Assembly: GCA_963754015.1 (NCBI GenBank)
Contig: CAVWEG010000004.1
Span: 332,734 to 396,733, forward strand
From: Candidatus Dormiibacterota bacterium
Lineage (GTDB): Bacteria > Chloroflexota > Dormibacteria > Aeolococcales > Aeolococcaceae
Length of the DNA: 64,000 bases
Direction of reading: 5' to 3'
Shown here one piece after another: positions 1 to 54,747 of this stretch. The translations under genes and the position numbers were made by a program. Positions within the stretch are counted from its first letter, which is position 1. Each line of letters opens with the position of its first letter. The notes beneath the pieces were generated by a model. That model saw nothing but the letters and a program-made list of their open reading frames with translations, ran no database searches and was not told the DNA's origin.

Positions 1-288
1 TATGGTCGCGTTCGGGTTCGCACAGTGTCGCCTCGGACCGCCCCCGGCAAGCACGCCCTCCACCCTCAGGCTGGGTCAACGGAGGGCGACACCTTCGCGC
101 GGCAGGGATGTCGGCGAAGTTCCTAGCCTCCCCATTTTCCGGACGCTCGCATCGTCGCTCCTGATTCCACAACATTGACCGTCGAGAGGAAGTCACACTT
201 GCTGCGCGCCCGCTTTCTACTCCGCCGAGGGCAGGACGTGACAGTTCGTCGATCGTTCCGAGGCGTCTTTACTTGCTGAGCGGCGCGA

Positions 289-822
289 TCAAAGCACCTC
301 AAACTTCATATACACCTTGCGCTGCTCAGTTGTCGCCCCACCGACATCGGCAAGTAAGGCGAGAAGTTGATTGAAATCGCCCTTCGACAGGTCGCACTCA
401 ACCGCCTCCCAGAGTGCCCGCCCTGTCGGAAGGACGGCCGGCGACTTTCGTAACAACCTCCGGCTGCTCTCCTGAAGGCGTTGCGGCGTTACACCTCCTC
501 GCATAAGCACGTCGCGGAGACTCAGGCTCATCTCCCGAAGGAAGGAGCGTTCATTCCTTGCCGCACGCTCCCCGGAATGCGTGAGCGTACCCTCGTCAGT
601 CAGAAGTCCAAGTCGTCCTGCCATGGCCACAGCACGAAGGACGGCCCGTCGGGATGGCTTGGACACGTAATCGTCGCTATCTGAGTCGTATTGAAGAGTG
701 AGGAATGACGGGTGTCGCCGTGCCAACACAACATCTGCAAGTGGCCCCTCCGCAGGTGACCGTCTGTCGGCGTCATCGAGGACGAGTCGAATCTTCGCGT
801 AAAGGGAGCGCTCGGACGTCAT
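289..822 (-). CDS. Hypothetical protein (177 aa), fourth gene of the SIR2/PRTase cassette
   Basis: ORF track. The start codon overlaps the stop of the upstream 403-aa ORF by 1 nt (TGATG), which suggests translational coupling. No recognisable motif. Confidence 0.45.
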   Translation of the reverse strand: MTSERSLYAKIRLVLDDADRRSPAEGPLADVVLARRHPSFLTLQYDSDSDDYVSKPSRRAVLRAVAMAGRLGLLTDEGTLTHSGERAARNERSFLREMSLSLRDVLMRGGVTPQRLQESSRRLLRKSPAVLPTGRALWEAVECDLSKGDFNQLLALLADVGGATTEQRKVYMKFEVL

Positions 823-2033
823 CAGATCTCGGCTATCCGTCGCACGTCACCTTCGAGCAACCGCAGCGCATCTGGCGGGACCTGCCCGTCGATGACCCAC
901 CAACTCAGGGCACGCGTGGTCCGGTCGAGTCCGAGCCGGTCGCTCGTCCGATCGACCTCCGCGTCCAACGCATGAGCTTCCTCCCCAGCGAGAGTGCCCA
1001 CCGTCTCAGCCTCGCACGCCCGAGTTATCGCAGTGGCCAGCGTAACCGCAGCTTCTCGTACCGGCATCATCTCTCTGGCATGGAGGATGCGCGCATCTGT
1101 CCAGATCTCCCGCTCGTGCACATGCAGGCGGTCGAAGATGAGCCGTTCTCCGCATCCTTCGGTGAGTTGATCGCTTATCGTCAGCCGCGCGCGCGCGTAA
1201 CGTTGCTCGTTATCAATGATCTTGCGCTGCAATTCGCCACGACTTCGATTCATCCGCCTCACGACAGTTAGATCGGGGCACGTGCCCGACTGACAGCCGC
1301 GCAGAAAGACGTTCCAGCAGCGTCGGATGAGCGTTTCGTGGTACTCGACCGCGCGAATCGTGCGCTCGACGTTCCCGTGTGTACCAAGAGCTCTCATGTC
1401 CTCCTCAGCGATGCCGTGCAAGGCATGGGCGAGAGGAACGATAATCCGCCGCGCCGAGGGACAGGCAGATAGAGCAGCCTCAGCATCAACTCTTGGGATG
1501 GTCGGGAGGATTCGCGTACGCGGATCGTTTGGCACCGGACCCTCCGGTTCGCGATGGGGTCTGATATCGAACATGACTCGCTCCGGGATAATCTCCTGGA
1601 TAGCAAAGGCAATATCTAAGACGTATCTGGTCGGCTCATCCCGCCGTCCCACAAGCGCCTGACCTGGCCCATACATGCCCTGTCGTTCTTCGAGCGGCAC
1701 AGGCAGATAGACATCTGCCTGGTCGACAAAGAGCTCGCGAGCAGCTCGTAGGGTGCGAGCGGCGACGTTGGCCAACTTATCGAAGGGAATGGCGGTCCGC
1801 CCTCCTGGGTCGAAGCCGTCCTCGCACCATCCGGCGAACAGAGCCTGCACAGTCGCCAAGAACCGGACGTGCTCCTGACCAACTAACCCCCTATCGCTAG
1901 CGTTGACGGCAAGTCTACGGACTATCCCCGCCACGGCCGGCACCGGAGGCAGATCAATGCCACGTGGATTCCGGCTCCAAGATTCCATGACGGCGCGTGA
2001 AGTCGCGAACCAAGTCGCTCGCGACCTCTCCAT
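822..2033 (-). CDS. Hypothetical protein (403 aa), third gene of the SIR2/PRTase cassette
   Basis: Long ORF co-oriented with and coupled to its neighbours. Its 5' end overlaps the PRTase ORF by about 80 nt, so the true start is probably internal or an indel joins or splits the pair. It has a weak Pol-beta-like stretch (GPGQALVGRRDEPTRYVLDIAF) that is insufficient for a nucleotidyltransferase call. Confidence 0.45.
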   Translation of the reverse strand: MERSRATWFATSRAVMESWSRNPRGIDLPPVPAVAGIVRRLAVNASDRGLVGQEHVRFLATVQALFAGWCEDGFDPGGRTAIPFDKLANVAARTLRAARELFVDQADVYLPVPLEERQGMYGPGQALVGRRDEPTRYVLDIAFAIQEIIPERVMFDIRPHREPEGPVPNDPRTRILPTIPRVDAEAALSACPSARRIIVPLAHALHGIAEEDMRALGTHGNVERTIRAVEYHETLIRRCWNVFLRGCQSGTCPDLTVVRRMNRSRGELQRKIIDNEQRYARARLTISDQLTEGCGERLIFDRLHVHEREIWTDARILHAREMMPVREAAVTLATAITRACEAETVGTLAGEEAHALDAEVDRTSDRLGLDRTTRALSWWVIDGQVPPDALRLLEGDVRRIAEI

Positions 2034-3486
2034 CAGGCAGATATGTCCGGCACACGACCTCAGCCGATTCGATCATCTGCACGCGCTCCACCTTCGTGAC
2101 GAGCATGGCCTCGTCGATGAGGACATCCATGCAAGAGCTCACTACCGCCTTCGGAAGCCCATTCGACCTGCCGATACTGGCGACTTCGCGCATGGTGATG
2201 CCTTGAGGGCTCTTTTCCCCGTACTTCTTGGCCTCAGTCCGCTCAGTAGCTCGTCGATCTGCAAGCCGCTCGATCTCTTGGAGCAGCGCCAAGGCGGCTG
2301 TTTCAAGGGCTTCGCGAGATGGATTATAGATGCGTCCTACCTGCCACCTACGGGCCCTAAGCCGCGTCCCCATAGCCTGAGCTCTCACCCATACATTCGA
2401 TAGTCGGCCGTGAAACGCAGTGAGATCTAAGGTCGGATACACCACGCTGAGGTGATTGAGGTCGTAGCGGCCGGCGTTCGGGATCGCCGGCTCTCCAGAA
2501 ACCTCTGGAAGATGCACCTCGCACACTTGGCCACGGGCGGCGCTGATGTCCCGCAAAGCCAGAAGGAGCGGATCTAAGGAGGCTCGCAAAGCCACTGCGT
2601 GAAAACGCGCCTCATCGTCGAGGCTAGCCCAATTTCCCAGTATCGACGATTCCCCTGGAGCCGGCTCCCACGATGCATCGACCTCACACGGAGTGTCAGG
2701 TAGGCAGATTGGAATGAGCGCAAACTCCCCTGGGAGTCGCTCCACGACGCGACACTTTCTGACCACGCCATCGGCTCGCGTTCCTGGTGGCAGTGCGGCA
2801 AGTTCCTCGTCCGGCATTTGCTTCCCGTAAAAAACCGTAAGATTTTTCCGATCGCCGCCCGAGTTAAACACCACGACTTCTCCAGAGCGGCTCAGTGCTT
2901 CTGCCAACCGACCTATCGGGGCTCTCAATCGCAGTCGCACTTCCACATGCTCCGTGTCGAGCATGAGCGAACCCGCGCGCTGCAGTGCCGTAACAAGGCG
3001 CGCTCGTGTCTGTCGGAACGCCTCCGTGGGAAGATGCTGAAGCCACGCAGCATCTGGAAAATGGGTAGTGTGGAATTCGTAGCCGGTACCCGCGTCTTCG
3101 TGCATGGCGAATGCGGCAACACGAACATTGCCAAGGGCATCGTCAGTTGCACCGACACTCCGAAGCTGTTCGAGAATGGTTCGCAGCGCATTGCCTTTCC
3201 GCACCATGTCATCCACGACGAGTAGCTTTGCCCCAGCAAGGCGATTCAAGGGAACCGAGCTTAGCGAGCTGCTCGAGACGACTTGTTCCCACGATGGAAT
3301 GCGCTGGGCTGGTTCGTTCGCGAGTGATTCCAGGACCGCACGGTAGATTGCAGTGCCCTTCCGCTCCGTGACAATGACAACATCTGGATGGAAGTCCGTG
3401 ACCTGTTGCACGATGAACTGGCGGAGCTGACGCAGCGTCATCTCGGGGGTTTGCTCCACGACGCCGGTCAGCGCGGCGAGAGTCAA
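1954..3486 (-). CDS. PRTase-domain protein (N-terminal type-I phosphoribosyltransferase-like fold plus a ~380-aa C-terminal region of unknown function)
   Basis: The N-terminal ~130 aa has a PRTase layout. HPDVVIVTERKGTAIYRAVL is followed by the hydrophobic-x4-DD signature AKLLVVDDMVRKGNAL (canonical VLLVDDVLTTGGT). The start overlaps the SIR2-like stop by 4 nt (ATGA). Confidence 0.55.
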   Translation of the reverse strand: MTLAALTGVVEQTPEMTLRQLRQFIVQQVTDFHPDVVIVTERKGTAIYRAVLESLANEPAQRIPSWEQVVSSSSLSSVPLNRLAGAKLLVVDDMVRKGNALRTILEQLRSVGATDDALGNVRVAAFAMHEDAGTGYEFHTTHFPDAAWLQHLPTEAFRQTRARLVTALQRAGSLMLDTEHVEVRLRLRAPIGRLAEALSRSGEVVVFNSGGDRKNLTVFYGKQMPDEELAALPPGTRADGVVRKCRVVERLPGEFALIPICLPDTPCEVDASWEPAPGESSILGNWASLDDEARFHAVALRASLDPLLLALRDISAARGQVCEVHLPEVSGEPAIPNAGRYDLNHLSVVYPTLDLTAFHGRLSNVWVRAQAMGTRLRARRWQVGRIYNPSREALETAALALLQEIERLADRRATERTEAKKYGEKSPQGITMREVASIGRSNGLPKAVVSSCMDVLIDEAMLVTKVERVQMIESAEVVCRTYLPDGEVASDLVRDFTRRHGILEPESTWH

Positions 3487-4547
3487 CTCACGACCCCAGA
3501 TCGAACGGGACCGAGCTCACGAAGAAACGCGTACGCGTCAGGGTCCTCTTGAAGATCAAGCACTTCGCGGAGCTTTCTCACCTTTGATGCCAACTCCGTG
3601 GGACTCCACCCATAGTACTGACCCAAGAGCTCAGCATCCTGCTCGTCGCGGACCCTGGGGAGCAACTCGCCGAGCTCGCGGAAGAAGTCATATGCGGTGA
3701 GCGGAATGTATTTGGCCCCGCGCATTTCCCAGATTGCGCGGTGGAGTCGATATTCGGCGCCGCTGCTGACGGGGTATGCAACGTATGTCCATTTGGAGTG
3801 ACCTTGACGTAGCCGTAGCCGCTCCCTGTACCTTGCGAAGAGGTGTCGGAAGTCTGGATCGGACATCGAGTAACCAACAAAACAGAAGACTCGCGAAAAG
3901 TACAGACGATCCATGAGAATCGCCTCGACGCTTCGGAAGGACGTTGAGGCGAGTGTCTCGTCCTCAGTCATCTGGAAGGTCTTGTCCACTAACCCGTGAA
4001 TATGCAACACGGGAATCCGTCCGTCGAGCAAGGCGGATTCGTAGTCGTTGGCGGTTTCCTCGGTGATCGGAAGCGCCGTCTCGCCAACGGCTTCTTCAAT
4101 AAGCAATTCAAGGTTCGTGGTGAAAATGCGTCGGATTACGATGTCGCCATCCCACTGCACAAGCTTGGCTAGTGCGGCGTGCGCCGGACTCTTGACGCCC
4201 GCCGGCGAAGGACGCATCAACACTTTCAGCTCATCTTGTAACGTGGCGCGTTTCGCTGGTAGATGCGCCTGAATCGCACCAATGATCACTTCGAAAGGCG
4301 CGGAGTTGGCTAAACGCGCGAGTTCGTCCTCTGAGATTCGGGCGCTGCCCGTGAACATATGTTTGCGGAGTAGCTCGCGCGCGACCGCACCTCCCGTGGG
4401 GACGCCAGCGTCGGCAGACATACCCGACCCCACGAGAAAATCCCCTTCCCCGCTCAGGATCTCCCTCGCGATCTCGGTGAGTTCCTGCTCGATCTCACCA
4501 ATCAGGACGTCACCCAGCGCAGATTTTAGATCCGCAAACGAAAGCAT
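3483..4547 (-). CDS. SIR2-like (SIR2_2/DUF4020-type) NAD-binding protein
   Basis: N-terminal Rossmann motif FLVGSGMSADAGVPTGG (compare sirtuin GAGIS..GIP). A HIHG motif lies at the expected catalytic His position and a FVGYSMSDPDF motif downstream. First gene of a four-gene coupled operon. Confidence 0.6.
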   Translation of the reverse strand: MLSFADLKSALGDVLIGEIEQELTEIAREILSGEGDFLVGSGMSADAGVPTGGAVARELLRKHMFTGSARISEDELARLANSAPFEVIIGAIQAHLPAKRATLQDELKVLMRPSPAGVKSPAHAALAKLVQWDGDIVIRRIFTTNLELLIEEAVGETALPITEETANDYESALLDGRIPVLHIHGLVDKTFQMTEDETLASTSFRSVEAILMDRLYFSRVFCFVGYSMSDPDFRHLFARYRERLRLRQGHSKWTYVAYPVSSGAEYRLHRAIWEMRGAKYIPLTAYDFFRELGELLPRVRDEQDAELLGQYYGWSPTELASKVRKLREVLDLQEDPDAYAFLRELGPVRSGVVS

Positions 4548-4833
4548 GCGTGACCACCGTCTAATCTCCTAGCGAGTTCCGTAGTGTAGAGGAACCGGGC
4601 ACACCCCATTGGGACGCCAGGCGCGGAGTTGTCGGCTCCTGGGGTCCCTGACCCCACCCTGTCTACCTTGAGCATATTTGATCGCGTACAAGGCGGTGGA
4701 TTCGAAGTCACGACCTACGGGGCCACTACTCGAGACGCTCGTCGGCGATTTCCGGCGCTGTCAGCGGTACACACAGGCGACCGTGCTCCTGCGAATTCCG
4801 TCGCAACAGGCGGGCGAGAACAATAGCGCTTGC

Positions 4834-5556
4834 TTACGAGCTCGCGTCGGCCCCCGCCAAGGGCGCTCCCGCCTCTCCTCGCGAATGCGCGTCCCACTTC
4901 CCATCGCGGATCGCCAGGTGGACGTCGCACCGCGCGTCCACTGCCGGGTCATGCGTCGCCACGAGCAGCGTCGCACCCGTGCGAGCTTGGAGTGCAATCA
5001 GCATGTCGATGATCGCTACCCCCGTCGCCGTGTCGAGATTGCCAGTGGGTTCGTCAGCGAGGAGCAGCGGCGGTTCAACAATCAGCGCGCGCGCGATGGC
5101 CACTCGCTGTTGTTCGCCTCCGGATAACTCTGACGGCAGCGCATCCCCGCGACCGTCGAGGCCAACCTCTTCTAATAACTCGCGAGCCCGACGCTGCAAC
5201 GGCTTCCCAGCCTGATAGGGAAGCAAAGGTGCAGCGACGTTGTCAGCGGCGGTGAGCGCCGGCAACAGGTGAAATCGTTGGAACACGAAGCCGACCCTGC
5301 GACGATACGCGACCAACTTCCGACGTGGCAGTCCGTCGAGTTGCGTCTCCCCAACGAGTAACGTGCCCGAGGTCAGCGTGTCCATGCCGCCGATGACATG
5401 GAGCAGCGTGGATTTGCCTGAGCCAGACGGACCGGTGATCACGACCAGCGAACCTGACACGACGTCCAAGTCAAGGTGATCCAGTGCGGTCTGCGAACGT
5501 TCGCCAGCCGGATACTGACGTGTCAACCCACGCCCGGTGATCGCGACTCCTGGCAT
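4834..5556 (-). CDS. ABC transporter ATP-binding protein (MacB/LolD type)
   Basis: Walker [13 protein letters not shown] signature [15 protein letters not shown], Walker B LLLADEP. Lies immediately downstream of the FtsX-type permease. Confidence 0.85.
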
Positions 5557-5559
5557 CCG

Positions 5560-8398
5560 TTAGTCCTCGGCCAAAGCGGCGGCCGGCGCGACGTGCGATG
5601 CCCGCCAAGCTGGAATCGTAAGCACACCGCCGACCAGCCCCAGTCCAATAGCGGCCGCGAGCGCTGCCGCGGGTACCACCGAAAGCGCCGATCCCGTGAG
5701 GATCGCGGCGAGTCCCAGGCCGACCGCGCCCCCAGCTACAACGCCGACTATCCCGACCACCATCCCCTCGGTGAACGCGAGCCGGAAAAGCGTGGCCGGT
5801 CGCCAGCCCGTCGCGGCCAGCACAGCCTGCTCCCCAACGCGGTCGCGCAGGTTGACCGCCAGCACGTCGCCGACGCTGAACGCGCCGAGTAGCAACGCCA
5901 ACACCGCAGCGATAAGGTCAACGCCCCGAACCTGCACACTCACGACATCGCCAAGAGCCGTCCCCACCACCTCGCCTTGGAAGCCCAACTGGACCGCGAG
6001 CAACACCGCGAAGGCCGCGACTCCAATGAACAAACCGAGTGCGCCGCTGACCAGCCGTGCAGGGCGCCGCAGGAGGTTGGCCATCGCGATTCCAGACACG
6101 CGACGTACCGGCCGGTGACGGTGAACGCTTCCGACGATCGCATAGATCGCATCCAAGGGACGGCCGCGAGTCGCGACGTAAGCCGGCGCAAGGCCGGCGA
6201 CGCATGCGAGCGCAAACGCGATTGGGATGACCAAAAGTGCATGCCACCATGGCAACTCCAGATGCAGCGCCAGTGCGAGGATTTCGGCCAACCCTGCGCC
6301 GACCCCTCCGGCACTCAGACCGACCAAGGCAAGCTCCCCAAGGACGAGTCGGAAGAGTGCGGCTCGACCCCAGCCCAGACATGTCAGCACACCCAATTCA
6401 GTGCGTCGCGAGCGCACGCTCGCATAGGCACCGTTCGCGAGAAACAACACACAGACGACCAGCACCAGTACGAAGAGAACGAGGCTCTTTGCGTCCACCG
6501 CATTCAGCACCACCAGCGCCGCCCCTTTGCGAACCCAACCTTCGGCGACGGTCAGTGCCGGCTGGCCGCAACAGCCGGCGGGAACGTCAACATCCACGGT
6601 GGTTGGAGATGATCCGGCGGTGATATCTACCTGCAGCCCGGTGGCTTTCTTGATGGCCGTTGCGACCGCCAGGATCCGGGCCTGGTCGATAGCTTCGAAG
6701 CCGTGCACGTTGGCAATGCGGACTCGGATCGCACTGATTGGTGCAGCGGCGTCGGTGGGTGAGTATCGGGTGCAAAACGGCAATTGATGGTGCGGGTCGT
6801 TGATGTAGCACTGTTGCGAGAGCATCTGCTCCATCGCGGTCAGGGTCGTTAGAAGGAGTGGCGGTTGCGCCAAGTAGCCACCCAGGTTGGTGGTGGGACC
6901 CAGCGGCTGGTTCTTGAGCGCGTTCCGCGATGCCGGGTTTCCTCCCGTGACAACGGGAGGGTAGTACGTCTCGAGAGGTACGGCGCTCAGAGGATTGAAA
7001 CCGGGGAGCTTCTCCGGGTCGAACTGTCCGATCACCGACAAACGGACCGTCCCCGACGAGCCGAGTGTTGGGTTGTAGACGCCGTTGGCGTGGTGCACGG
7101 CGATCGCTTGGAATTGGGTGTCCTCGTTGCCTGGTGGCGCGGTGATGGGTCCTTCGCCGTCGTCGCGGGCGATCCACTCTGAGGGGGCGTTGACGGTCGT
7201 GGAAGGAGTGAGCATGCCACCACTATCCGTGTACGTGATCCCCGCCCCGGTCCAGTAGGCGTACACAAATCCGGGATCCGTAAACGCCCCAGTCGCGGAC
7301 AGCGTTGGGTGTTGCAGTTCGTCGAGGAGGGCGGTGTAGCCAGCTTGCGCCGAGAGTTGGGTGTGTTCGACGACCGACCCCGAAAGTCCGTGCAGAAAGG
7401 CTTCCACCGTAGCGGAGTTGCGATCCGCAAGCCGATCGACCGCGCTCACTCCTGGCGGAATGGTGAGTTGCTGCACATCGGCGGTGAGCGATTCGTCGAG
7501 ATAGGTGCGCGACGCCGCCATAACCGGCAGACCCGAGCTCTCCTCCACCGGACGCGACAACCCCTGCTGCTCCTGGAGGTAGTCACCAGACACGACCGTG
7601 TCCGGCAGTCCCACCAACTTCGCTTCCTGGACCGGATCGACTGCGGCGAGCAGCATCGGGAAGCTGAAGGTCACCAATGCGCCAGGAGCGGATTGAAGTC
7701 CGGCCGCTGCGGCCGAATTGATCGTGGGGGTGACGGCGGAGAAGCATGCGAGGTCGACCTCTCCCGCTGTGTCCAACCCTCCCGGCGGCCCGAAGGGTTG
7801 GAGCGAGGGACAGGTGATCGTTGGTTTCGCTTGTCCTGGCAGGACTTCTTCCACCAGGGCACCGCCATCCATGGGCACGAGAACGAAGCGGTCGGTAGGG
7901 GTGTAATAGACGTAGTACGTGCCCCCGGGATACGACGACAAGCCGTTGTCCGCCTTCCAGGTTGTGGTCACACGATACAACTGATGCGGGTTAGTGTTGC
8001 TGGCAGGGTTGACCGGAACCACGACCGTGGCTTCGGGGATCACATAACCGATGTTGGCAATCGGAGCTGCGACGGAAACACCGGGAAGAGAGAGGATCTT
8101 CTGCCACTGTGCCTGCGTGATCCCGCCAAAGGTATCGGCGAGGTAGTTGTCCCGGACCAGGTTGTCTTGGGTCTCGATAGCGTTGGCGCTGCCTTTTGGG
8201 CGGACGAGGATGTCATAAGCTGGCCGTGCGGCGGCATCGACCGTGCCGTGGACGGCAAGTTGAACTCGTTGAAGCCGCGGCGGTGAGCAGCGAGAAACTC
8301 ACGGATGCGACGACGATGCCGGCACCCAAGGCCAGGAGGCGGTCAATGCGAGACCGCACCTGTTGAACGATGACCCCTCCTAGGCGAAAGCGAACCAC
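5560..8398 (-). CDS. MacB/FtsX-family ABC permease with a very large (~480 aa) extracytoplasmic domain. An apparent frameshift near 8213-8295 separates TM1 from the remainder.
   Basis: The C-terminal three to four TM helices are FtsX-like. The main frame stays open upstream of 8043 (AYDILVRPKGSANAIETQDNLVRDNYL...). The N-terminal TM1 (VQQVRSRIDRLLALGAGIVVASVSFSLL) sits in a different frame (8213-8398, with a GTG at 8398). Confidence 0.7.
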
Positions 8399-8568
8399 TC
8401 CACCATCATGGACCGCTGCACAGGAGCGGTCTAGGGCCAAACGCCGGGGCCGCCAGATGGACAGGAGCAACGTGGATCGATGGGCCGATCTCCGGTCCGA
8501 CCTGCACTTGACACGCGCCGCGGATGCTGGTATGACGGTCGCGATCAGGAAAAACATCTGGAGGGCAT

Positions 8569-8757
8569 GTGATGTTGGGACGCCTCGCCGATCGGATGGT
8601 GTCAAAGCTCCTACCCCACGCCCACGCGAGCGCCCAATGCACGCCGTTCTGTACCCCAAACGATGCTTGTGGATGCACCTGTGGGGGGACGAACTGTCAT
8701 CGCAACGTGTTCTCGAATTGCCACATCACCTGCTTGTGCCCGGCCGCGTGCCCGTAG
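8569..8757 (+). CDS. Cys-rich small peptide (62 aa, 10 Cys in the C-terminal 39 aa), putative secreted disulfide-rich peptide or RiPP-like precursor
   Basis: GGAGGG lies 6-7 nt upstream of ATG 8572 (GTG at 8569). Sequence MMLGRLADRMVSKLLPHAHA|SAQCTPFCTPNDACGCTCGGTNCHRNVFSNCHITCLCPAACP. Immediately followed by MauE-like, thioredoxin-like, ABC exporter and S26 peptidase genes. Confidence 0.45.
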   Translation: MMLGRLADRMVSKLLPHAHASAQCTPFCTPNDACGCTCGGTNCHRNVFSNCHITCLCPAACP

Positions 8758-8851
8758 TCGGGGCTGACGCACAACTTCACTGACGGGTAGCTTGAGGCTG
8801 GTCGCAAATCACCGCCTCAGGTAAGCGGGCTGCAGATCTGGAGGCGCGGCT

Positions 8852-9382
8852 TTGGCGTACGTCGTACTGTGCTGCCGTTTGCTGCTCGGCGCAACATTCG
8901 TCGCATCGCTGGCAACCAAACTCCGGTCTCGCGCGACGCTGCACGAGTTCTTGGCCGCTGCGGGAGCCCTGCTGCGGAGTGACTCGCCCTTGGTCCGCTT
9001 GCTCGCCGTAACCTCGATTGCCACCGAACTCTTGATTGTGATCACACTGCTGATCCCAGCGTTGGTTACCGCAGGGTTCGCGCTGACCGCTCTGTTGCTG
9101 CTCGTCTATACGCTGGCCATCGCCCGGGCATTGCAGCACGGGGTGACGACGCCGTGCCGCTGCATCGGAACCTCGAGTGATCCGCTCCATTCGTGGTTGA
9201 TCCTCCGCAATGCAGTCCTGTTCACCGTGTCAATCGTCGGTATTGCGACATCCTTGGCAGGCAGCCCGGCAGTCGGGTTCACGACCGCGCTGGCAGTCTC
9301 CGTGGCGATCGCCATCTTCGGCCTCGCCCTCGTGATGTCATTCGACGACCTCGTGTACCTTGCGCGCCGGAACCCGATGTGA
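8852..9382 (+). CDS. MauE/DoxX-family membrane protein (disulfide-bond formation accessory)
   Basis: 176 aa with four predicted TM helices and a CxC (TPCRCIG) in a loop. Sits where mauE sits relative to the mauD-like thioredoxin. Confidence 0.55.
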   Translation: MAYVVLCCRLLLGATFVASLATKLRSRATLHEFLAAAGALLRSDSPLVRLLAVTSIATELLIVITLLIPALVTAGFALTALLLLVYTLAIARALQHGVTTPCRCIGTSSDPLHSWLILRNAVLFTVSIVGIATSLAGSPAVGFTTALAVSVAIAIFGLALVMSFDDLVYLARRNPM

Positions 9383-9535
9383 CCGTCGGGAGTTTCGCGC
9401 TCGCATCCGTGGCGGTGGCGATCAGCCTCGTCAACCTCCTCCTAATCCTCGGGATCGTGCGCCGAATGCGCCAGATGGAACCGATGGTTCCGGCCGCATA
9501 TTTCGAAATCGAGTTCGGGTCCCGCGCCCGGCTCC

Positions 9536-9934
9536 GTGCTCCCGGAGTTCAATGCGCGAACGACCAGCGGGCAGCAGGCACACGGCTCAGCACTCGCAAC
9601 AAACCACGGGCTCATGGCTTTTCTCTCGGTGGGTTGTAGCGCGTGCCATGAGCAGATCCCGCTGCTCAACGCTTACGTAGCCCGCGAGCGCCTCGATCCC
9701 GACCATGCCTTGATTGTGGTGAGCGGTGACCCCGACGGACGGAGCGAATACGCGCAACAGGCCGCGTCATTTGCTCATGTCGTTGTCGAAGCGGCGAACG
9801 GCCCTCTCACCCGAATCTTTGATATCAAGGCGTTCCCGACGGTGCTCGCCCTGCACGACGGCCGAGTCCAAGCGAACGCCCCCAGTGTGAACGCGCTCCA
9901 CCATGAGACGGCGCGCTCGCGCGCGGGGAGCTGA
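9536..9934 (+). CDS. Thioredoxin-fold thiol:disulfide oxidoreductase (MauD/TlpA/redoxin-like)
   Basis: Contains FLSVGCSACHEQIPLL (WCxxC-type active site) and an upstream LPEF...G strand pattern. A TM helix that could serve as the membrane anchor is encoded in another frame just upstream (9380-9530), so an N-terminal frameshift is possible. Confidence 0.55.
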   Translation: MLPEFNARTTSGQQAHGSALATNHGLMAFLSVGCSACHEQIPLLNAYVARERLDPDHALIVVSGDPDGRSEYAQQAASFAHVVVEAANGPLTRIFDIKAFPTVLALHDGRVQANAPSVNALHHETARSRAGS

Positions 9935-9946
9935 ATCGAAGCGGAT

Positions 9947-11785
9947 GTGACCCCGCTGAGGCCGTTGCGGGAGCGGGTGCTGTTTGCCTGTCGCCTGTGT
10001 GCGAAAGCAGGAAAGTTTCGTCTCCTTGCGATGCTGTTGACCAGCATCGCACAGGGCCTTGTTCCCGTCGCGTACGCGTTGCTCACCCGCACGCTCATTG
10101 ACGCGCTCGTCGCCGATCAACGGTCGGCTGCGATTGCCGCGCTGGTCGGAATCGCGATTACCTCAGCAGCGCTCATCGTCCTGCCTTCACTCAGCCACTA
10201 CGTGGGCGCCGACGTGGACCGCCGACTTGAGGTCGACCTCCAAGCTGAACTCTTTGGCGCCGTGGCCGCGCTACCAAGTCTTCGCTTTCTGGAAAGCCCA
10301 CCTTTTCTCGACCGTGTTCGCCTGGCGCAGCAAGCAGCGCTGACAGGCCCAGCTCAATTGATCGGCGGCGGTTTCGCCTTCGTGCAAGGCGCGACTACCC
10401 TGGTCGGGTTCGTTGCTACCCTCCTGGCGCTCGATCCGTGGATCGCTATCCTCCTCGCCGCCAGCGCGCTTCCGATGGTGGTGGCGGAGATGCGGCTTGG
10501 CGCCTCGCGCGCAGCGGCCCGACTTCGGGGTACCCCGTTTCGTCGGCAGAGCCTCGCCTACACGTCCAGCATGATCGACGCCAACGTCGCCCAGGAGATC
10601 CAACTCTTCGGTATCGGCAGCTTCCTGCGCGACAAGCTGGTGCACGCGCTTCGAGGAGCCACTGACATTGAGAGGCGTCAGGATCGCCATGAGCTGTGGG
10701 TCCGTGCCCTGCTCGGCGTCCTCGCCGCGGTCGCCGCCGCAGCCAGTCTGGGCCTGATTGTCGTCGGCGCGCTGCAGCATCGGTTCAACGTTGGTGATGT
10801 GGCAATAGTCCTCGCCGCCATGTCCGCATTGCAGTTGACGTTCACGTCCCTCACGACCCAACTCGGCCAGATGGCCGAGGTGCTGCGCCTCCTTGATCAC
10901 TATCAGACCGTGCTCGAAACGGCTGCGCACCGCGAACCTCAGACGGCCGCAAATCCGACACGTCGTGAGGTTCCGGTTGTGCACCGTGGTATCGAGATGC
11001 GCGACGTCTGGTTCCGCTACGAGGAGGGTCAGCCGTGGGTATTACAGGGGGTCAACCTCACCATCCCCGCCCATGGCGCACTCGCGCTTGTCGGCCCAAA
11101 CGGCGCTGGCAAGACCACGATTGCGAAACTCCTCTGCCGCTTCTACGACCCAACCCATGGCGAGGTGCTCTGGGATGGGATCAACATCCGCGAGTTCCCA
11201 ATGGACGAGCTGCGGCGCCACATTGGCATCGTGCTGCAAGATCCGGTCACGTACGATTTGACGGCCGCCGAGAACATCGGCGTGGGCAGCCTCGGCCGTC
11301 TTCGAAATCAGCCGGCGATCGAAGCGGCGGCCGCCATGACCAGCCTCCATGACATCTTGCGAGCGCTCCCTCGTGGGTACGAGACACTGCTGAGTCGCCT
11401 CTACTTTGACGAGCGCAGCGACGACCCCGGCCTGCTGCTTTCGGTAGGGCAACAGCAACGGCTGGCACTTGCTCGCGCCCTACTCCGCGCAGAGGCTCAG
11501 TTACTCGTCCTTGATGAACCCACTGCGGCGCTCGACCCCCAGGCGGAAGCCGCAATCCATGAGCGCCTCCGCGATCTCCGTCATGGCCGATCGAGCCTGC
11601 TCATCTCGCACCGCCTCAGCACCACCCGCGACGCCGACTGCATCGCGGTGCTCAGTGCAGGTCGCGTCGTCGAGTCAGGCAACCATCAGGAGCTAATGAG
11701 CCTGGGAGGTCTCTACGCGCGGTTATTCACCGTACAGGCCGCGGGTTACGCCGAGCAGCCGGCTCCCCTGACCGCAAACGGGTGA
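9947..11785 (+). CDS. ABC transporter, fused permease/ATP-binding exporter (612 aa)
   Basis: Six-TM N-terminal domain, then Walker A GPNGAGKTT, signature LSVGQQQRLALARALL and Walker B LLVLDEPT. Confidence 0.85.
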   Translation: MTPLRPLRERVLFACRLCAKAGKFRLLAMLLTSIAQGLVPVAYALLTRTLIDALVADQRSAAIAALVGIAITSAALIVLPSLSHYVGADVDRRLEVDLQAELFGAVAALPSLRFLESPPFLDRVRLAQQAALTGPAQLIGGGFAFVQGATTLVGFVATLLALDPWIAILLAASALPMVVAEMRLGASRAAARLRGTPFRRQSLAYTSSMIDANVAQEIQLFGIGSFLRDKLVHALRGATDIERRQDRHELWVRALLGVLAAVAAAASLGLIVVGALQHRFNVGDVAIVLAAMSALQLTFTSLTTQLGQMAEVLRLLDHYQTVLETAAHREPQTAANPTRREVPVVHRGIEMRDVWFRYEEGQPWVLQGVNLTIPAHGALALVGPNGAGKTTIAKLLCRFYDPTHGEVLWDGINIREFPMDELRRHIGIVLQDPVTYDLTAAENIGVGSLGRLRNQPAIEAAAAMTSLHDILRALPRGYETLLSRLYFDERSDDPGLLLSVGQQQRLALARALLRAEAQLLVLDEPTAALDPQAEAAIHERLRDLRHGRSSLLISHRLSTTRDADCIAVLSAGRVVESGNHQELMSLGGLYARLFTVQAAGYAEQPAPLTANG

Positions 11786-15442: not shown

Positions 15443-16009
15443 CTAGTACTCGATCGCCGGCGCGCTGATCCTCTGCAAATCCCGCCGTAGAAACTGATAT
15501 GCAGTTTCGGCCGCTTCCTCGATCGTTAGGCCCCCTTCGACCGTGTAATCCGCAAGGTCGACAACTGCACCGACTCCTGACTCAGTCGCATGGGCCTCGA
15601 CGGCCTCGGCCAGTTTGACGCCGATCCCCCGCGCTTGCAGGCGCTTACTTCGTAACGCACTATCGACGCTGACCGCGACGAGCCGAAACGGCAACGGGTG
15701 GACTATTCGTGCCAGTGCGTGGATCGCCTCGACATGACGCACACCGTCCACGACCACGGAGCCTCGTGCGTAGCCTGAAAAGTTCAGAACCGCTCGGCAA
15801 AATGACGGCCAGCCGACCGCGATCAACTCATCGCCGATCGCTTGCAGCACCTCGCGCCGGCCGCAATCGATGCCGCGTTCGCGGGCAACGTGTCGAACGT
15901 AATCGCCGAAACTCGCATATGCACAATCCATGCGCGCCGCGAGTTCATGGGCGAGTGTGGTCTTGCCACTCCCGATTCGACCCGCGACCCCGACGGCGAC
16001 TGGCCTCAT
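15443..16009 (-). CDS. P-loop nucleoside-monophosphate kinase-like protein (cytidylate-kinase-like)
   Basis: VAVGVAGRIGSGKTTLAHELAARM followed by SFGDYVRHVARERGID, matching the Cmk layout (G-x-G-x-GKxT ... DTGAMYR). ATGA overlap with the upstream ASCH gene. Confidence 0.55.
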   Translation of the reverse strand: MRPVAVGVAGRIGSGKTTLAHELAARMDCAYASFGDYVRHVARERGIDCGRREVLQAIGDELIAVGWPSFCRAVLNFSGYARGSVVVDGVRHVEAIHALARIVHPLPFRLVAVSVDSALRSKRLQARGIGVKLAEAVEAHATESGVGAVVDLADYTVEGGLTIEEAAETAYQFLRRDLQRISAPAIEY

Positions 16010-16506
16010 AAGAGTCCAGGTGTGGGTTGATCAACAAGGACGACCCACCCCCGTCGGTCTCGCTTTGGGAGTGCTAGTTGCGGGAGCGCGCGTGCCTCGG
16101 TGATCTGCATGAGAGTGGCGAATACCGCATCGCGTCGATCCTCCCAGAACGCTCCTTGGGGGCAAATCGCAGGGCCAAACCGTTCCCGAATCTCCGCCCA
16201 GGTTCTAGGTGTCAAACGGTAATCCCACACAGCACTCACGGTGCACGCCCCCACAAGTGGTCCTGAAGAACGCTTGAGGAGCACGATGTCCCTTGGGGTC
16301 ACTCTGCCGTATGGAACACTCCGTTTCCGGGAGAAGCGCGATTCTACTGTCTTCGAGCGATCCAGCACGAACTGGAGGTACGGTTCAACCAAGATAGCGA
16401 TGTGCAATCCGACCCGTGGCGTGTCCTTGTCCATCGCCTCATCAAACAGATCGGACCAAACCCGCTCACGTCGCACCGCGTTGCGGAGATGCTCAAGGAG
16501 CATCAA
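16006..16506 (-). CDS. ASCH-domain (PUA-like) protein
   Basis: LHIAILVEPYLQFVLDRSKTVESRF fits the ASCH beta-barrel signature (..ik..y...i.sG.KtvExR). ATGA overlaps with both neighbouring genes. Confidence 0.5.
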   Translation of the reverse strand: MMLLEHLRNAVRRERVWSDLFDEAMDKDTPRVGLHIAILVEPYLQFVLDRSKTVESRFSRKRSVPYGRVTPRDIVLLKRSSGPLVGACTVSAVWDYRLTPRTWAEIRERFGPAICPQGAFWEDRRDAVFATLMQITEARALPQLALPKRDRRGWVVLVDQPTPGLL

Positions 16507-17786
16507 CTCGCCATCTGCTCACAACGGCGTGGCGGTTTCCAGCCAAGCTTGGCAAGCTCACGGCTTTCGTCGCGACAGATCCCCCGCAGTTGGGTTGTAG
16601 ACATTGCGACTCGGATTCCTTCCGCTCGGGTCAGTGGTCTGTCGACCCTAGCCGCAACCTGCTGCTCAGGGTCAACGCCAAGGGTCATCGCATCCAGGAT
16701 CACTGGGAGCACGTTGGGCGACGCACAACTGAAGACGCGATTACCTGAGGTCCAGACATCGACTTGGTCGCGAATTGGATGCCGCCGACTCACGTCAGCA
16801 AGGACATCTCCGTCTACAACTCGATGGAGGACCGGATCGATGACAGAGCTCTCATGCTTCCTGATACGGACCCGAACCCAACCAACGGCTCGCTCATCCC
16901 AAAGCGCCTGCGCGCCCATCCAATCGGGCGCGGTTGGCGGTCTGCCGGAGGTGGTGAGTATTTGTAAGTTTCCGCGTCGCCAATCCATCGGCAAGTCGCG
17001 CCACCCCGCGGCGAAGAGCGCATTGATCTCGAACGGCGGTGACAAGTATCGGATGGCCGTCGGTAAGGCTCTGATCGCTCGAAGTCCATGTGCCGCGGCA
17101 CGCTCTCGGAAATGAGCTCGATCACGGCTCCAGGCCGGCCTCGTTCCCGGCGCCGGCAGCGTAATAAACAGAGGCGCGCCCGAACGAGCGCAACTTGCGG
17201 CTGCCCACAGGAATGCGTCTATGTGTTCGGGGTACCAAGGAGGATCAGCAACGACCGCCGCCGCCGATAGATCGGGGATCTTATCGAGAGTCAGATCACA
17301 CACATGAAGTGTGCCAGGTGGTCCCGCCGACGCTAATCGGTCGAGAATTATTGAACTGTAATCTACCAACACGAAGCGACGATTGAGTCGGCGACTGTAA
17401 GCGGCGAGGTAGAGGCTGGGAGTCCCGAGAAGGACGACGGTGTCGCCTGGCTGAGTGGCTGCGAGTGTGCGAGCAAGCAGGTCATCGATGGCCTCGGGCG
17501 CATACCGCCAGTCGAAATCGAGGGGATGAGGAGGTGGGAGCACGCTTCCTAAGGTCTTCGAGGGCAGCGGCCGATGCGTGGCTCTAGATAGAACGGCGCG
17601 ATGAGCGTCTGGCCCGAGTGTCCCCGCGAGCCGTAGCCGATTGAGGCCGTCTTCGACGAGCGACGGGTACACCCCGGGCAGGGCTCGAACCAATTCATCA
17701 AAGTCATGCACGCCCTGTGCTATGGCGTCACCGATCCAGTGATCAACCCGGCGACGGAACGCCGCGGTGTCTCGAGCGTGACTCAC
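16503..17786 (-). CDS. MT-A70-like (DPPW-motif) N6-adenine-type methyltransferase
   Basis: Motif IV AAVVADPPWYPEH (DPPW). Likely GTG start at 17786 forming a GTGA overlap with the stop of the radical-SAM ORF; the ORF-track start at 17867 would overlap by 84 nt. Confidence 0.55.
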   Translation of the reverse strand: MSHARDTAAFRRRVDHWIGDAIAQGVHDFDELVRALPGVYPSLVEDGLNRLRLAGTLGPDAHRAVLSRATHRPLPSKTLGSVLPPPHPLDFDWRYAPEAIDDLLARTLAATQPGDTVVLLGTPSLYLAAYSRRLNRRFVLVDYSSIILDRLASAGPPGTLHVCDLTLDKIPDLSAAAVVADPPWYPEHIDAFLWAAASCARSGAPLFITLPAPGTRPAWSRDRAHFRERAAAHGLRAIRALPTAIRYLSPPFEINALFAAGWRDLPMDWRRGNLQILTTSGRPPTAPDWMGAQALWDERAVGWVRVRIRKHESSVIDPVLHRVVDGDVLADVSRRHPIRDQVDVWTSGNRVFSCASPNVLPVILDAMTLGVDPEQQVAARVDRPLTRAEGIRVAMSTTQLRGICRDESRELAKLGWKPPRRCEQMAS

Positions 17787-18851
17787 GCACGTGCTCCGAG
17801 CGGTACGCTGGAGATGCGCATAGCGCGATCGCGGGATGAAAAGCGGCGTTCCAGTTCGGCTTGCCATGCTTCAACGGCGACGTGTTGCACCTGCATTGAT
17901 TCCCGCCTAACGCTATTCAGCCGAGGCGTAACCGGTCCATACTCGATGATCTCAAGCGGCACCAACCGGAGGGGAAGCGCCTCCGTGATGCTCTGGAGGC
18001 GATCAACGAAGGTGCACATAGCACGCGGGAGACCCTGCGTACTGGGACCGGTGAACGTGGCATATGCATATAGGTCGAGTCCCGTCGAGAGCAGCTTCGC
18101 GAAGAGTTCGAACTGACGGTCGAACAGTGCTGGGGCGGCCTCGGTGTTGAACGCGAAGGAAACTTCGTCGAAACCCTTGAAGCAGCACACGCGTCCATAT
18201 CCTTGATAGTCGGACATGGTCCTGCGCGTGGCGCCATCTAGGAACTTCCAGAAGTAGTCATTGCTCAAATTGTCGTCGGACCAGAGGTACACCGAGTTCC
18301 TGCAGCCGTGCATCAATCAGCGCCTTCATCATCCATGGCACCCACTCGGGCGTCAGGTCAGGCTGACCACCAGTCAGGTCGATCATTGGTGGCCGTGGGT
18401 CGACGCTGGCGTAGCGCTCGACGAGCTCGCGGGGCGTCACCCAGATGCCCTTGGCGGCTCCGAGAAGGTCAAACGGCACGAAGCAATACCAGCATCGCCA
18501 GTTGCAAGCGGCGTTTTGGAACACCTGAGCCTCTAACTCGTCGGATTCACGCAGTCCCAAGAACGTTGCAGCGGGGTCAATAGGCAGCGCATTTTCCGGC
18601 CATCTCTCGCTCGTCGAACGGCGGAAGTGTCGCAGCCGACCAATACCACCGCAGTTTGCAGGCTCCGTGAGGTCCGCCTCTTGGCCGCTTCCACGGAAAT
18701 CCGCGACAAGCACCCTCCCTTCAGCCAAATTGATAGCTCGTGGGCGGAGACGCGCAGAGTAGCTATCCGTGTCAATCATTAGAGGTGATGTGCGCTTGCG
18801 TGCGGTATGGCACGTGGGTTGGACCCTCCGGGAGGTCAGGCCAACGATCAT
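17783..18851 (-). CDS. Radical SAM enzyme, split into two overlapping ORFs (18258-18851 and 17783-18316) by an apparent frameshift
   Basis: CxxxCxxC cluster NAACNWRCWYCFVPF and a glycine-rich SAM motif LTGGQPDL in the N-terminal ORF. The C-terminal ORF continues in another frame with a 58-nt overlap. Combined length is about 355 aa. Confidence 0.55.
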
Positions 18852-22503: not shown

Positions 22504-23811
22504 TCACGTTCTTGACCGCTCGTTGATCCAGGACTCATATCGGTCGTAGACATATCGCGGCGAGCTCAGTCCCAGCGCCGAAGAAACCTCCTGAATCCCC
22601 GCTCCACCGCGCAGCATGGTCACAGCCGCCGTGTCGCGAAGGTCTTGAAACGTATAGACAGGGATGTGGACCGATCTGCAGCGTTCGCGCAGCCGTTGGC
22701 TCATCTCGCTGCTCTGATACGGCTTGCCGGAGCGAGCCGCAACCACCAGCTCCAGATCGCCTGGTGCACTCGGCACCTGTCTCCGTATCTGCGCAGCCCG
22801 GCTGCGTTGCAGCGCTTCGAGAACCTCGGTCGTCAGCTGCAGACGCCGCGCCTGGCCGGCTTTGAGCGGCACCGACTGGGTTCCGTAGCGAGTGCTGTCG
22901 TTGTCGCCGGGCTCGAGTGTGCGAATCAACTTACTCCTCACCTCGATAGCCCGCTCCTCGACGAGGACGCGGCTCCAGCGCAGGTCGAGAATTTCACCCA
23001 GATCCATCCCCGTCCGAAGCGCGAGCAGGCAGGCCGCGTTGAGCTGGGGATCGCGGAGCCCAAGGAGGCGTTGTTCGTCCCCGGGCTCGAGAAGGCGAAC
23101 CGCGACCGTCGCCGGGGCCGGCCACGTGTAGTGCCCCGCCGCCGGGTTCCCGGCAAGCAAACCAGCATCCATTGCAGCTTGGAGCGCGGCGTGCAAGGTC
23201 GCGTGACACCGCTTGGCTGTCCCGCCACTCATGCCCTTAGCCAGCAGATGCACGTAGCCCTCCCGCACCCGAGGAGCACGCAGGCCGAGTAGGACCTCAT
23301 CGCCAAACTCGGGGATGAGGTGCAAGCGAACGCTCTCTTCGTAGCGATGCCAGGAGCGCGAATCCAGATCCGGTTTGCGCAGTTCGAGCCACTTCCCGAG
23401 CCAGTGCGCGACGCTCGGGTTTCCACGCCCAGTTGCATCGAGTAAGTGTTGTTCTGCCTCATCGGCTGTTGCCCCCGTGACCGAGACTCGCTTACCTGTC
23501 GCTTGGTCGACGCCTCGGGCGCGCCACGTCCCTCCCTCGATCGCTGGGGGAGTAACCGTGCCCTGGCCTCGAGGTCGGTGCGCGCGGGTCGCCGCGACAA
23601 GAGCGGGAGCCGAATGGTTCTCCGCCGCCATCGCCGCGGCAATCTTCGGCTCCAGCTCCTCCTTCGTCGGGGCATAGATATCCCGGCGGACCTTCCGCCC
23701 AGTACTGTCGACGGCCCAGTAGCGTCCCCGCCAGAGGCCGTCCGGTCGCGGCTTGGTATCCAGCGACGGTGGACGCCGAGGCAAAGCAGACATGGTGGGC
23801 GAGCTTAGCAA
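22504..23811 (-). CDS. Tyrosine-type site-specific recombinase (phage integrase family)
   Basis: C-terminal catalytic region ...TFQDLRDTAAVTMLRGGAGIQEVSSALGLSSPRYVYDRY (R-H/D-R-Y pattern with terminal Tyr). Adjacent to the tRNA 3' end. Confidence 0.85.
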   Translation of the reverse strand: MLSSPTMSALPRRPPSLDTKPRPDGLWRGRYWAVDSTGRKVRRDIYAPTKEELEPKIAAAMAAENHSAPALVAATRAHRPRGQGTVTPPAIEGGTWRARGVDQATGKRVSVTGATADEAEQHLLDATGRGNPSVAHWLGKWLELRKPDLDSRSWHRYEESVRLHLIPEFGDEVLLGLRAPRVREGYVHLLAKGMSGGTAKRCHATLHAALQAAMDAGLLAGNPAAGHYTWPAPATVAVRLLEPGDEQRLLGLRDPQLNAACLLALRTGMDLGEILDLRWSRVLVEERAIEVRSKLIRTLEPGDNDSTRYGTQSVPLKAGQARRLQLTTEVLEALQRSRAAQIRRQVPSAPGDLELVVAARSGKPYQSSEMSQRLRERCRSVHIPVYTFQDLRDTAAVTMLRGGAGIQEVSSALGLSSPRYVYDRYESWINERSRT

Positions 23812-24034
23812 AACTGGGGTAAAAGTGGGGTAAAAAAGGCGTTCAAAACGCTACGGCGAATCCGGAGCATGTATCATCTCGGTAGATATGGACTCGATAT
23901 GGACTCTGAGCTGGGGTACAGACCCCTCCAGCCACTCCTTTGACCCTAATCTGACCCTAATGTGGGGTGGGCGCTACTGGGCACTGGCGGGCACTGGCGT
24001 ATTCGGATTGACCGACACTGAGATCAAAAGACGC
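23812..24034. repeat. AT-rich att-site arm region with four pairs of short tandem direct repeats
   Basis: Seen directly: ggggtaaaaGTggggtaaaa, atatggactcGatatggactc, tgaccctaatCtgaccctaat, gggcactggcgggcactggcg. Lies between the integrase start and the tRNA-Ser 3' end. Confidence 0.45.
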
Positions 24035-24123
24035 GGAGCGAGAGGGATTCGAACCCTCGATACCAGTTTCCCGGTATACCGCATTTCCAATGCGGCGCCC
24101 TCGGCCAACTAGGCGATCGCTCC
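24035..24123 (-). tRNA. tRNA-Ser (anticodon GGA)
   Basis: Hand-folded reverse complement: acceptor GGAGCGA/TCGCTCC; anticodon stem CCGCA/TGCGG with loop TTGGAAA; long variable arm; T-arm GAGGG-TTCGAAT-CCCTC. No encoded CCA. Confidence 0.85.
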
Positions 24124-24457: not shown

Positions 24458-24546
<89 letters not shown>

Positions 24547-54669: not shown

Positions 54670-54747
54670 TGGGGTGGCCAGCGGGGGTCGAACCCGCGAC
54701 CTCCAGGGCCACAACCTGGCACTCTAACCAACTGAGCTATGGCCACC
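54670..54747 (-). tRNA. tRNA-His (anticodon GTG) with a 5' G-1 and encoded CCA
   Basis: Reverse complement GGTGGCCATAGCTCAGTTGGTTAGAGTGCCAGGTTGTGGCCCTGGAGGTCGCGGGTTCGACCCCCGCTGGCCACCCCA. Anticodon stem CCAGG/CCTGG with loop TTGTGGC. Confidence 0.85.

Follow-up and report, generated by a model that had tools for sequence, protein, structure and literature searches.

In Thoeris, DSR and related systems, SIR2_2 proteins deplete nicotinamide adenine dinucleotide (NAD+). A protein of this type is the first product of the locus described here, a cassette of four genes at positions 289-4547 of a 64,000-nucleotide window (the whole stretch of DNA that was analyzed) from contig CAVWEG010000004.1 of a Candidatus Dormiibacterota bacterium (assembly GCA_963754015.1). 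The SIR2 gene is followed by a gene for a phosphoribosyltransferase-like protein (PRTL) and by two further genes, g3 and g4. A second group of described systems to which the cassette bears a likeness is built on the phosphoribosyltransferase (PRTase) fold. In type III retrons, the effector consists of a PRTase-like protein and a winged-helix protein that is either fused to it or encoded next to it (PMC7736814). The effector of Retron-Eco11, which requires its phosphoribosyl pyrophosphate (PRPP) motif, reduces the PRPP level and brings about abortive infection (PMC12746101). PRTase-fold components of defense or toxin systems have also been reported for ShosTA (PMC11961720) and for Ophion OpnC and DefensePredictor DS-32A (10.1101/2025.09.30.679545; 10.1101/2025.01.08.631726). 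We read the cassette, with a probability of roughly 0.55, as the reduced four-gene form of a rare, mobile and undescribed conflict system that serves abortive-infection-type anti-phage defense.

The list of open reading frames (ORFs) for the window contains four intact and closely spaced ORFs in the same direction, at the coordinates given in a preliminary description of this DNA. These, together with the gap that precedes them, are:

3483..4547, minus strand: gene 1 (SIR2), 354 aa.
1954..3486, minus strand: gene 2 (PRTL), 510 aa.
822..2033, minus strand: gene 3 (g3), 403 aa at its longest and 373 aa from the GTG at 1943, which is the likely start.
289..822, minus strand: gene 4 (g4), 177 aa, its start overlapping the g3 stop (TGATG).
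4548..4833, minus strand: non-coding gap of 286 nt, placed by the ORF list between the SIR2 gene and the gene of an ABC-transporter ATPase upstream of it.

The motifs quoted in the preliminary description (GSGMSADAGVPTGG, HIHG, FVGYSMSDPDF and LLVVDDMVRKGNAL) are all present, as is the TGATG overlap of g3 and g4 at 822. Its ATGA overlap at 3483-3486 has to be corrected to TTGA with a TTG start, the SIR2/PRTase junction reading GTG AGT TGA CTC. The TTG start of PRTL agrees with the N-terminus of homologue P0002, which is 54% identical; in-frame alternatives are a GTG at 3459 and an ATG at 3441. The g3 gene overlaps the PRTL gene by 80 nt only when its first ATG (2033) is taken as the start. Homologues of g3 begin to align at about residue 30 of the 403-aa ORF, and the in-frame GTG at 1943, located 10 nt past the PRTL stop, gives a protein of 373 aa, compared with 374 aa in the nearest relative (P0057). 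A scan of the 286-nt gap found no sigma-70-like promoter or terminator consensus, and promoter, terminator and Rfam scans of the cassette yielded nothing useful, with no Rfam family in positions 1-9000 of the window.

The assignment of gene 1 to the SIR2_2 family is borne out by its score of 53.9 bits with the Pfam model (PF13289), whose cut-off is 24.5 (E = 2.7e-14). The protein possesses the GxGxS NAD loop (GSGMS; G40, G42 and S44), Asn145 in a TTN motif and His184 in HIHG, followed by a helical tail of about 70 aa with no sensor domain. In alignments with PDB sequences, N145 and H184 line up with the catalytic Asn and His of ThsA and of further SIR2 NADases whose structures are solved. Residues G40, G42, S44, T143, T144 and N145 are invariant in 16 members of the SIR2 family, and the catalytic His is kept in 14 of the 16 homologues, the window copy among them. 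At L002:6922-8001 (HLRG) and L014:6844-7887 (YLRG), two of the related loci, an Arg occupies the His position and the remaining operon is intact; at L013:6933-7996, the SIR2 gene is broken into two ORFs, a sign of decay.

Defense models were taken from PADLOC-DB 2.0.0 (2023), and NCBIfam 20 and PHROGs were also searched. The best PADLOC matches of gene 1 are PDC-S65 (1.4e-12), ThsA (9e-8) and Dsr1 (1e-7), with further matches to SIR2-Argonaute and LmuA. Every one is a defense SIR2 protein and covers the SIR2 domain only, and all PADLOC and PDB sequence matches of gene 1 are proteins of SIR2-effector defense systems. NAD+ depletion is the likely output of the cassette SIR2. Like the SIR2 proteins of ThsA, DSR1/DSR2, SIR2-HerA, SIR2-pAgo, KomC and PDC-S65, it combines the GxGxS loop with the catalytic Asn and His. 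Unlike them, it is a bare 354-aa SIR2 with no SLOG/STALD or large sensor region, in an operon with no HerA, TIR, Argonaute or KomA/KomB partner. Membership in the individual systems was rejected in each case. For Thoeris, none of the four proteins contains a TIR domain and the ThsA match is confined to the SIR2 part (residues 23-246 against positions 10-214 of a 478-residue model). DSR1 and DSR2 exceed 1000 aa with a large C-terminal sensor, compared with 354 aa here, and the NF041818 model scores 29.2 bits against a cut-off of 1400. For SIR2-HerA (Nezha) and Kongming, Pfam and PADLOC detected no HerA, KomA or KomB domains in genes 2-4, and the KomC match is weak (E = 0.26). For PDC-S65, whose models are about 500-590 aa long, only the SIR2 part matches (residues 25-197 against positions 21-202 of a 592-residue profile, at the E-value given above).

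Gene 2 barely passes the Pfam Pribosyltran model, scoring 27.7 bits where 26.3 is the cut-off (E = 1.9e-6). Residues ~14-171 of PRTL form a divergent type-I PRTase domain with the pyrophosphate (PPi) loop ERKGTA and the PRPP loop LLVVDDMVRKG. Both loops, the PRPP loop being a hydrophobic strand, DD, then Gly, are nearly invariant in the family and align with those of the purine PRTase 1vdm. A middle domain of about 250 residues (~172-420) follows, containing the invariant GSLxLDTEH together with conserved N215, K244, R246 and H345, and residues ~430-500 form a winged helix. The AlphaFold2 model of PRTL, built from 52 homologues, has a mean predicted local distance difference test score (pLDDT) of 92 and a predicted template modeling score (pTM) of 0.92, and includes both the PRTase fold and the winged helix. 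Foldseek searches with this model returned PRTases only. The PRTase domain is structurally like PyrR and the purine PRTases, and on this model, sensing of PRPP or uridine monophosphate (UMP) by PRTL is conceivable.

An ordinary purine or pyrimidine salvage PRTase, which would have a single domain of about 150-230 aa, was rejected as an explanation of gene 2, since the NCBIfam salvage and pyrimidine PRTase models give only 12-14 bits against cut-offs of 115-200 and the protein has three domains in its 510 aa. PRTL is instead a distinct family of about 500 aa with one fixed architecture. The suggestion in the preliminary description that the PRTase acts on nicotinamide or ADP-ribose products found no support.

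Comparison with type III retrons reveals a resemblance in module type. PRTL joins a divergent PRTase domain to a C-terminal winged helix, with a small, probable winged-helix protein (g4) encoded downstream, and relatives of the cassette weakly match the Pfam families PRTase-CE and wHTH-PRTase_assc. The first of these, PF24390, is matched by 8 of 52 PRTL relatives. The resemblance does not amount to membership: PRTL has the additional GSLxLDTEH middle domain of about 250 aa, and SIR2 and g3 are obligate partners. Type III retron membership was rejected since no reverse transcriptase-like ORF lies in or beside the cassette, the Rfam scan of positions 1-9000 gave no msr/msd RNA, and PRTL and g4 have no PADLOC match. 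The cassette also shares a PRTase-fold component with ShosTA, PsyrTA, Ophion OpnC and DS-32A, in which that component acts on nucleotide or PRPP metabolism. It differs from these other PRTase toxin systems in its architecture and in having no radical-SAM, PHP or NADAR partner. ShosTA and PsyrTA were rejected specifically, as PRTL has no PADLOC ShosT or PsyrA match at E<=1 and the cassette has no DprA-like or RecQ-like partner.

The preliminary description placed the products of genes 3 and 4 in no recognizable family, which is upheld for g3 and has to be amended for g4, whose relatives weakly match PF24409 (wHTH-PRTase_assc). This match is seen in 8 of 18 g4 members over residues ~53-93, with a best E-value of 4.8e-5 that lies below the gathering score; the window copy has no PF24409 or other match of its own, and a profile search of PDB sequences gave no meaningful match for g4. 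These weak family matches make g4 a probable winged-helix protein, of the kind that occurs together with PRTases. The g3 protein has no match in Pfam, PADLOC, NCBIfam, PHROGs or PDB sequences, and a Pfam scan of all g3 members returned scattered single matches only. Word-indexed protein searches with g3, as a single sequence and as an 8-sequence profile, found only one or two relatives, and the g3 and g4 families were rebuilt from the fetched loci with home-made hidden Markov models (HMMs).

In an alignment of 19 g3 sequences (numbered on window positions 825-1943), residues K56, G92, G187, H189, E237, K241, Y249 and I280 are invariant, and H91 and W281 nearly so. The C-terminal half of g3 is helical. 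Residues ~183-189 (window positions 822-1943) contain RALGTH, an R-x4-H at the invariant His that is present in most members and replaced by GRH in one subclade; located just ahead of a long helical region, it may be a motif like that of HEPN RNases. The AlphaFold2 model of g3 was poor (pLDDT 52, from three sequences) and was set aside. Comparison of g4 with PRTL and of g3 with PRTL by hhalign revealed no relationship. An 883-aa protein from the search of representatives, P0101, joins PRTL (residues 5-463) to a g3-like half with ADK, KHG, SLGRHE, E..KK and IW; either this is a Rosetta-stone fusion, in support of physical coupling, or it results from a sequencing error of one base where the stop and start codons overlap.

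The distribution of the cassette was established through PRTL, for which a collection of 5.8 billion protein clusters yielded 56 full-length homologues. When 1.84 billion representatives were searched exhaustively with an HMM, 349 PRTL matches were obtained at E<=1e-3, 121 of them at E<=1e-30. Full-length entries are about 450-540 aa long and match nearly the whole profile; many others are fragments. In total, 84 loci were fetched (6 by exact look-up, 14 from 185,579 species genomes and 64 from metagenomes), and six home-made HMMs were mapped over all of them. The cassette is very rare, with 14 occurrences in the 185,579 species genomes, all of them in metagenome-assembled genomes (MAGs). These belong to Acidobacteriota, Verrucomicrobiota, Desulfobacterales, Planctomycetota, Latescibacterota and Nitrospinota, with one archaeal bin, and the overall spread is patchy, over at least six bacterial phyla and one archaeal MAG.

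The preliminary description treated the four genes as a unit, and the related loci agree: SIR2-PRTL-g3-g4 is the invariant core of the 84 loci wherever the contig permits. The exceptions to the core order are L015, from which SIR2 is absent, and three divergent loci in which g3 or g4 was not detected. Wherever sufficient DNA lies downstream, g3 is followed by g4, with L076 as the one exception. The sole locus with ample upstream DNA and no SIR2 is L015, where PRTL-g3-g4 stand alone (7965-11120) with a RhuM-family gene upstream on the opposite strand (6242-7309, minus strand). The four proteins also diverge together. In pairwise comparisons of 19 non-redundant six-gene loci (the four core genes with an additional upstream pair), the identity matrices of SIR2, PRTL, g3 and g4 correlate with rho of 0.82-0.90. 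The mean pairwise identities in this set are 0.34 for SIR2, 0.37 for PRTL, 0.36 for g4 and 0.26 for g3, lower than for any other gene of the six. The four genes are a genuine, co-inherited evolutionary unit. Since the flanks of the four-gene loci are unrelated to one another, the cassette moves on its own.

The unit is real, and its commonest form has six genes, so the four-gene cassette of the preliminary description is a reduced form. In 45 loci, further genes stand directly upstream of SIR2, encoding a PyrF-like orotidine 5'-monophosphate decarboxylase (OMPdc-like) and a PyrE-like orotate phosphoribosyltransferase (OPRTase), and in 32 of the 45 the six-gene operon is complete. The pair is found, for example, at L002:5518-6907, and occurs in L002-L009, L012-L014, L019 and about 30 more loci. 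With respect to housekeeping PyrE and PyrF, these genes are clear paralogues that nonetheless score below the equivalog cut-offs (71-80 bits against 208 for the PyrF model; 179-200 against 245 for the PyrE model NF001729). The OMPdc-like protein has YDHQKAGTDIP in place of DxKxxDIP, thus an altered DHQKAGTD motif, and keeps D19, K43, D72 and D79-I-P. The PyrE-like protein retains the flexible-loop RK..K.HG and the EDLITDxGS motif, and is further marked by SGNYSPIYxNCR. In one subclade (L060:3067-3819, L063:411-1172 and L067:797-1549), a canonical-type PyrF (YDGKFKDIPNT) occupies the OMPdc-like position and overlaps the PyrE-like gene, which looks like a non-orthologous replacement that preserves decarboxylase function. 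At L008:5921-6145, the OMPdc-like gene has shrunk to 75 aa, again a sign of decay.

The pair is a second, detachable module that evolves separately, because its two genes correlate with each other at 0.82 and with the core four at only 0.11-0.39. Their mean pairwise identities are 0.55 (OMPdc-like) and 0.51 (PyrE-like). The pair is absent from 13 fetched loci and the window, each with at least 1.5 kb of upstream DNA. Four-gene forms occur at scattered points of the PRTL tree, which means that the pair was lost repeatedly, on at least eight occasions, with the core retained. In the window, the 4548..4833 gap lies at the position of the pair in the six-gene relatives, and HMMs of both genes found no PyrE- or PyrF-like remnant at E<=1 in the six-frame translation of the whole 64 kb.

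This pair favors a reading of the cassette as a specialized nucleotide- or NAD-linked biosynthetic or salvage operon. In such an operon, the PyrE-like and PyrF-like enzymes and PRTL would build an unusual pyrimidine or pyridine ribonucleotide, for example a modified nucleotide, cofactor or nucleoside natural product, with SIR2 supplying or transferring ADP-ribose, the winged-helix parts as pathway regulators, and the window as a partial pathway leaning on housekeeping PyrE and PyrF. The extra genes are near true OPRTase and OMP decarboxylase, with PyrE models at 179-200 bits and catalytic motifs kept, and they are the most conserved of the six genes; the canonical-type PyrF (DGKFKDIP) in the same slot in one subclade suggests that decarboxylase activity itself matters, and some loci lie amid housekeeping genes. 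However, the losses of the pair, at least eight in number, with persistence of the core four argue that the core needs no private pathway. The SIR2 is of the SIR2_2 type, whose characterized members are antiphage NADases and not of a biosynthetic or deacylase type. Extreme rarity, patchy phylogeny, unrelated flanks and mobile or defense neighbors are atypical of a metabolic operon, and no conserved transporter, tailoring enzyme or resistance gene accompanies the cassette. On balance, we hold the biosynthetic explanation to be rather unlikely.

The surroundings of the cassette bear on a second alternative. The preliminary description placed the cassette on an integrase/tRNA-linked island next to other defense-like modules. 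The island is plausible, and the defense-like modules next door are only weakly backed. The relevant features of the window are:

4834..5556, minus strand: ABC ATPase with Walker A and LSGGQ motifs, on the same strand as the cassette and directly upstream of it.
5560..8043, minus strand: permease-like protein, 827 aa, on the same strand and upstream.
9947..11785: fused ABC transporter, 612 aa.
22504..23811: tyrosine integrase, 435 aa, abutting tRNA-Ser(GGA), about 18 kb from the cassette.
24033..24123: tRNA-Ser(GGA).
24458..24546: second tRNA-Ser(CGA).

The GC content of the window is 0.58-0.65 over the first ~24 kb compared with 0.64-0.71 from ~25 kb, except for a dip to 0.61-0.63 at 56-58 kb, and it climbs from about 0.60-0.62 to 0.65-0.70 just past the integrase and tRNA-Ser. 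The integrase/tRNA-Ser site probably marks the right-hand boundary of a genomic island, which extends beyond the left edge of the window. Between the transporters and the integrase, positions 15443-21381 encode a 467-aa HTH_3 + Peptidase_M78 (ImmA/IrrE-like) protein, a DUF6932 protein and an AAA_18 protein, which are the nearest other suggestive genes to the cassette in the window, along with a short ORF that matches radical-SAM in part and several ORFs (166-454 aa) that match nothing in Pfam. A divergent tRNA-His(GTG)/tRNA-Arg(TCT) pair lies far from the cassette at 54670-54908. At other loci, the neighbors include TIR_2, CHAT with a QueC-like gene, a type ISP restriction enzyme, DUF4238, PLD-HTH, Fic, PemK and ParE toxins, integrases and transposases. 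PADLOC matches among 91 neighbors of 13 further loci comprise type II and III methyltransferases, PDC-S05, PsyrT and mad2.

These settings also suit a toxin-antitoxin-like (TA-like) addiction or competition module of a mobile island, in which SIR2, PRTL or both would be toxic and g3 and g4 would neutralize them, the role being to stabilize the island or to oppose other mobile elements and not phages. In its favor are the integrase/tRNA-linked island in the window, the integrases, transposases and TA genes near other loci, and gene overlaps like those of TA operons; PRTase toxins with partner antitoxins are also known, as in ShosTA (PMC11961720). Four to six large genes, however, far exceed what a TA module needs, and no relatives were found in plasmid or phage collections. 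The idea also differs from abortive infection mainly in its trigger, and many such TA modules defend as well. We consider it less probable again than the biosynthetic one. Chance juxtaposition, or spurious ORFs of a high-GC genome, is excluded despite the richness of such DNA in long spurious ORFs (the first 9 kb contains 53 ORFs of 60 aa or more), since homologues of each ORF recur with unchanged order and orientation at dozens of loci from different phyla, an order repeated in every related locus with enough flanking DNA, and since the family alignments contain invariant motifs and the four proteins co-diverge.

Several observations weigh against the defense reading. As Arg replaces the catalytic His in the SIR2 proteins of L002 and L014 (2 of 16), NAD+ hydrolysis may not be universal in the SIR2 family. 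The PRPP loop of PRTL (MVRKGNA) is without the usual Thr around Gly of the canonical xxTGxT, and the PRTase domain might sense a ligand instead of catalyzing a reaction. The PRTL middle domain had no match anywhere searched and has no fold assignment, and g3 likewise has no fold assignment. No member comes from a cultured organism, and no relatives were found in the phage, plasmid or viral-contig collections searched. The immediate neighbors of the cassette in the window are ABC transporters and not defense genes, and several loci, L005 and L004 for example, are situated amid housekeeping genes. A dedicated PyrE/PyrF-like pair is, to our knowledge, not part of any defense system, and the pair suits the metabolic reading at least as naturally.

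Abortive-infection-type defense nevertheless remains our favored reading, with the role drawn from domains and context and with each mechanistic step held less likely than the role as a whole. Because of the overlapping stop and start codons, the co-divergence and the one PRTL-g3 fusion, it is proposed that the four proteins form a complex. Within it, g3, perhaps together with the winged-helix parts, would sense a cue of infection; g3 is the candidate sensor since it diverges fastest (0.26) and the two metabolic-type genes slowest (0.51-0.55), as would be expected if g3 comes into contact with phage proteins. For its part, the PRTase domain of PRTL would bind or consume PRPP or a 5-phosphoribosyl nucleotide, comparable to the lowering of PRPP by the Retron-Eco11 effector. 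SIR2, once set free, would hydrolyze NAD+, and the infected cell would be deprived both of NAD+ and of the PRPP required for rebuilding nucleotides and NAD+. Phages are known to rebuild NAD+ through PRPP-dependent routes (bioRxiv 10.1101/2024.02.11.579819), and hitting both NAD+ and PRPP would therefore be a logical counter.

In most relatives, the upstream PyrF/PyrE-like pair might add an orotate-to-UMP-type step that feeds or drains the PRPP/pyrimidine node, and its repeated loss is what one would predict if housekeeping PyrE and PyrF are able to take over its work. A more specific version, which we regard as doubtful, is that in the six-gene system this private PyrE/PyrF-type pathway makes or monitors an orotate- or UMP-derived ribonucleotide that is read by the PRTase-like domain of PRTL and gates the SIR2 NADase. 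If true, this would be an immune logic based on pyrimidine precursors, unseen in described defense systems, with g3 and the PRTL middle domain as new folds or activities, and the four-gene form in the window would run that logic on the flux through the PyrE and PyrF of its host.

The preliminary description considered the arrangement undescribed, and it remains so in the sources covered. PADLOC-DB 2.0, NCBIfam and PHROGs have no match for proteins 2-4, the combination was not described in the literature covered by full-text searches, and recent discovery papers that mention PRTases concern different systems (bioRxiv 10.1101/2025.09.30.679545; 10.1101/2025.01.08.631726). What is new is a putative SIR2-based defense with a PRTase/winged-helix module, two parts of no known fold and a link to PyrE/PyrF-like genes. 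The immediate reach of the finding is limited by the extreme rarity of the cassette and its restriction to uncultured environmental bacteria. Two of its conserved components, g3 and the GSLxLDTEH middle domain, belong to no known fold or family. The link with dedicated OPRTase-like and OMP decarboxylase-like genes is unprecedented and would single out the metabolism of PRPP and pyrimidines as a node of immunity. If the cassette is anti-phage, it would represent a new multi-gene architecture among the NAD+-depleting systems, joining SIR2 NADases with the PRTase-plus-winged-helix effectors of retrons, two themes that have hitherto been separate.

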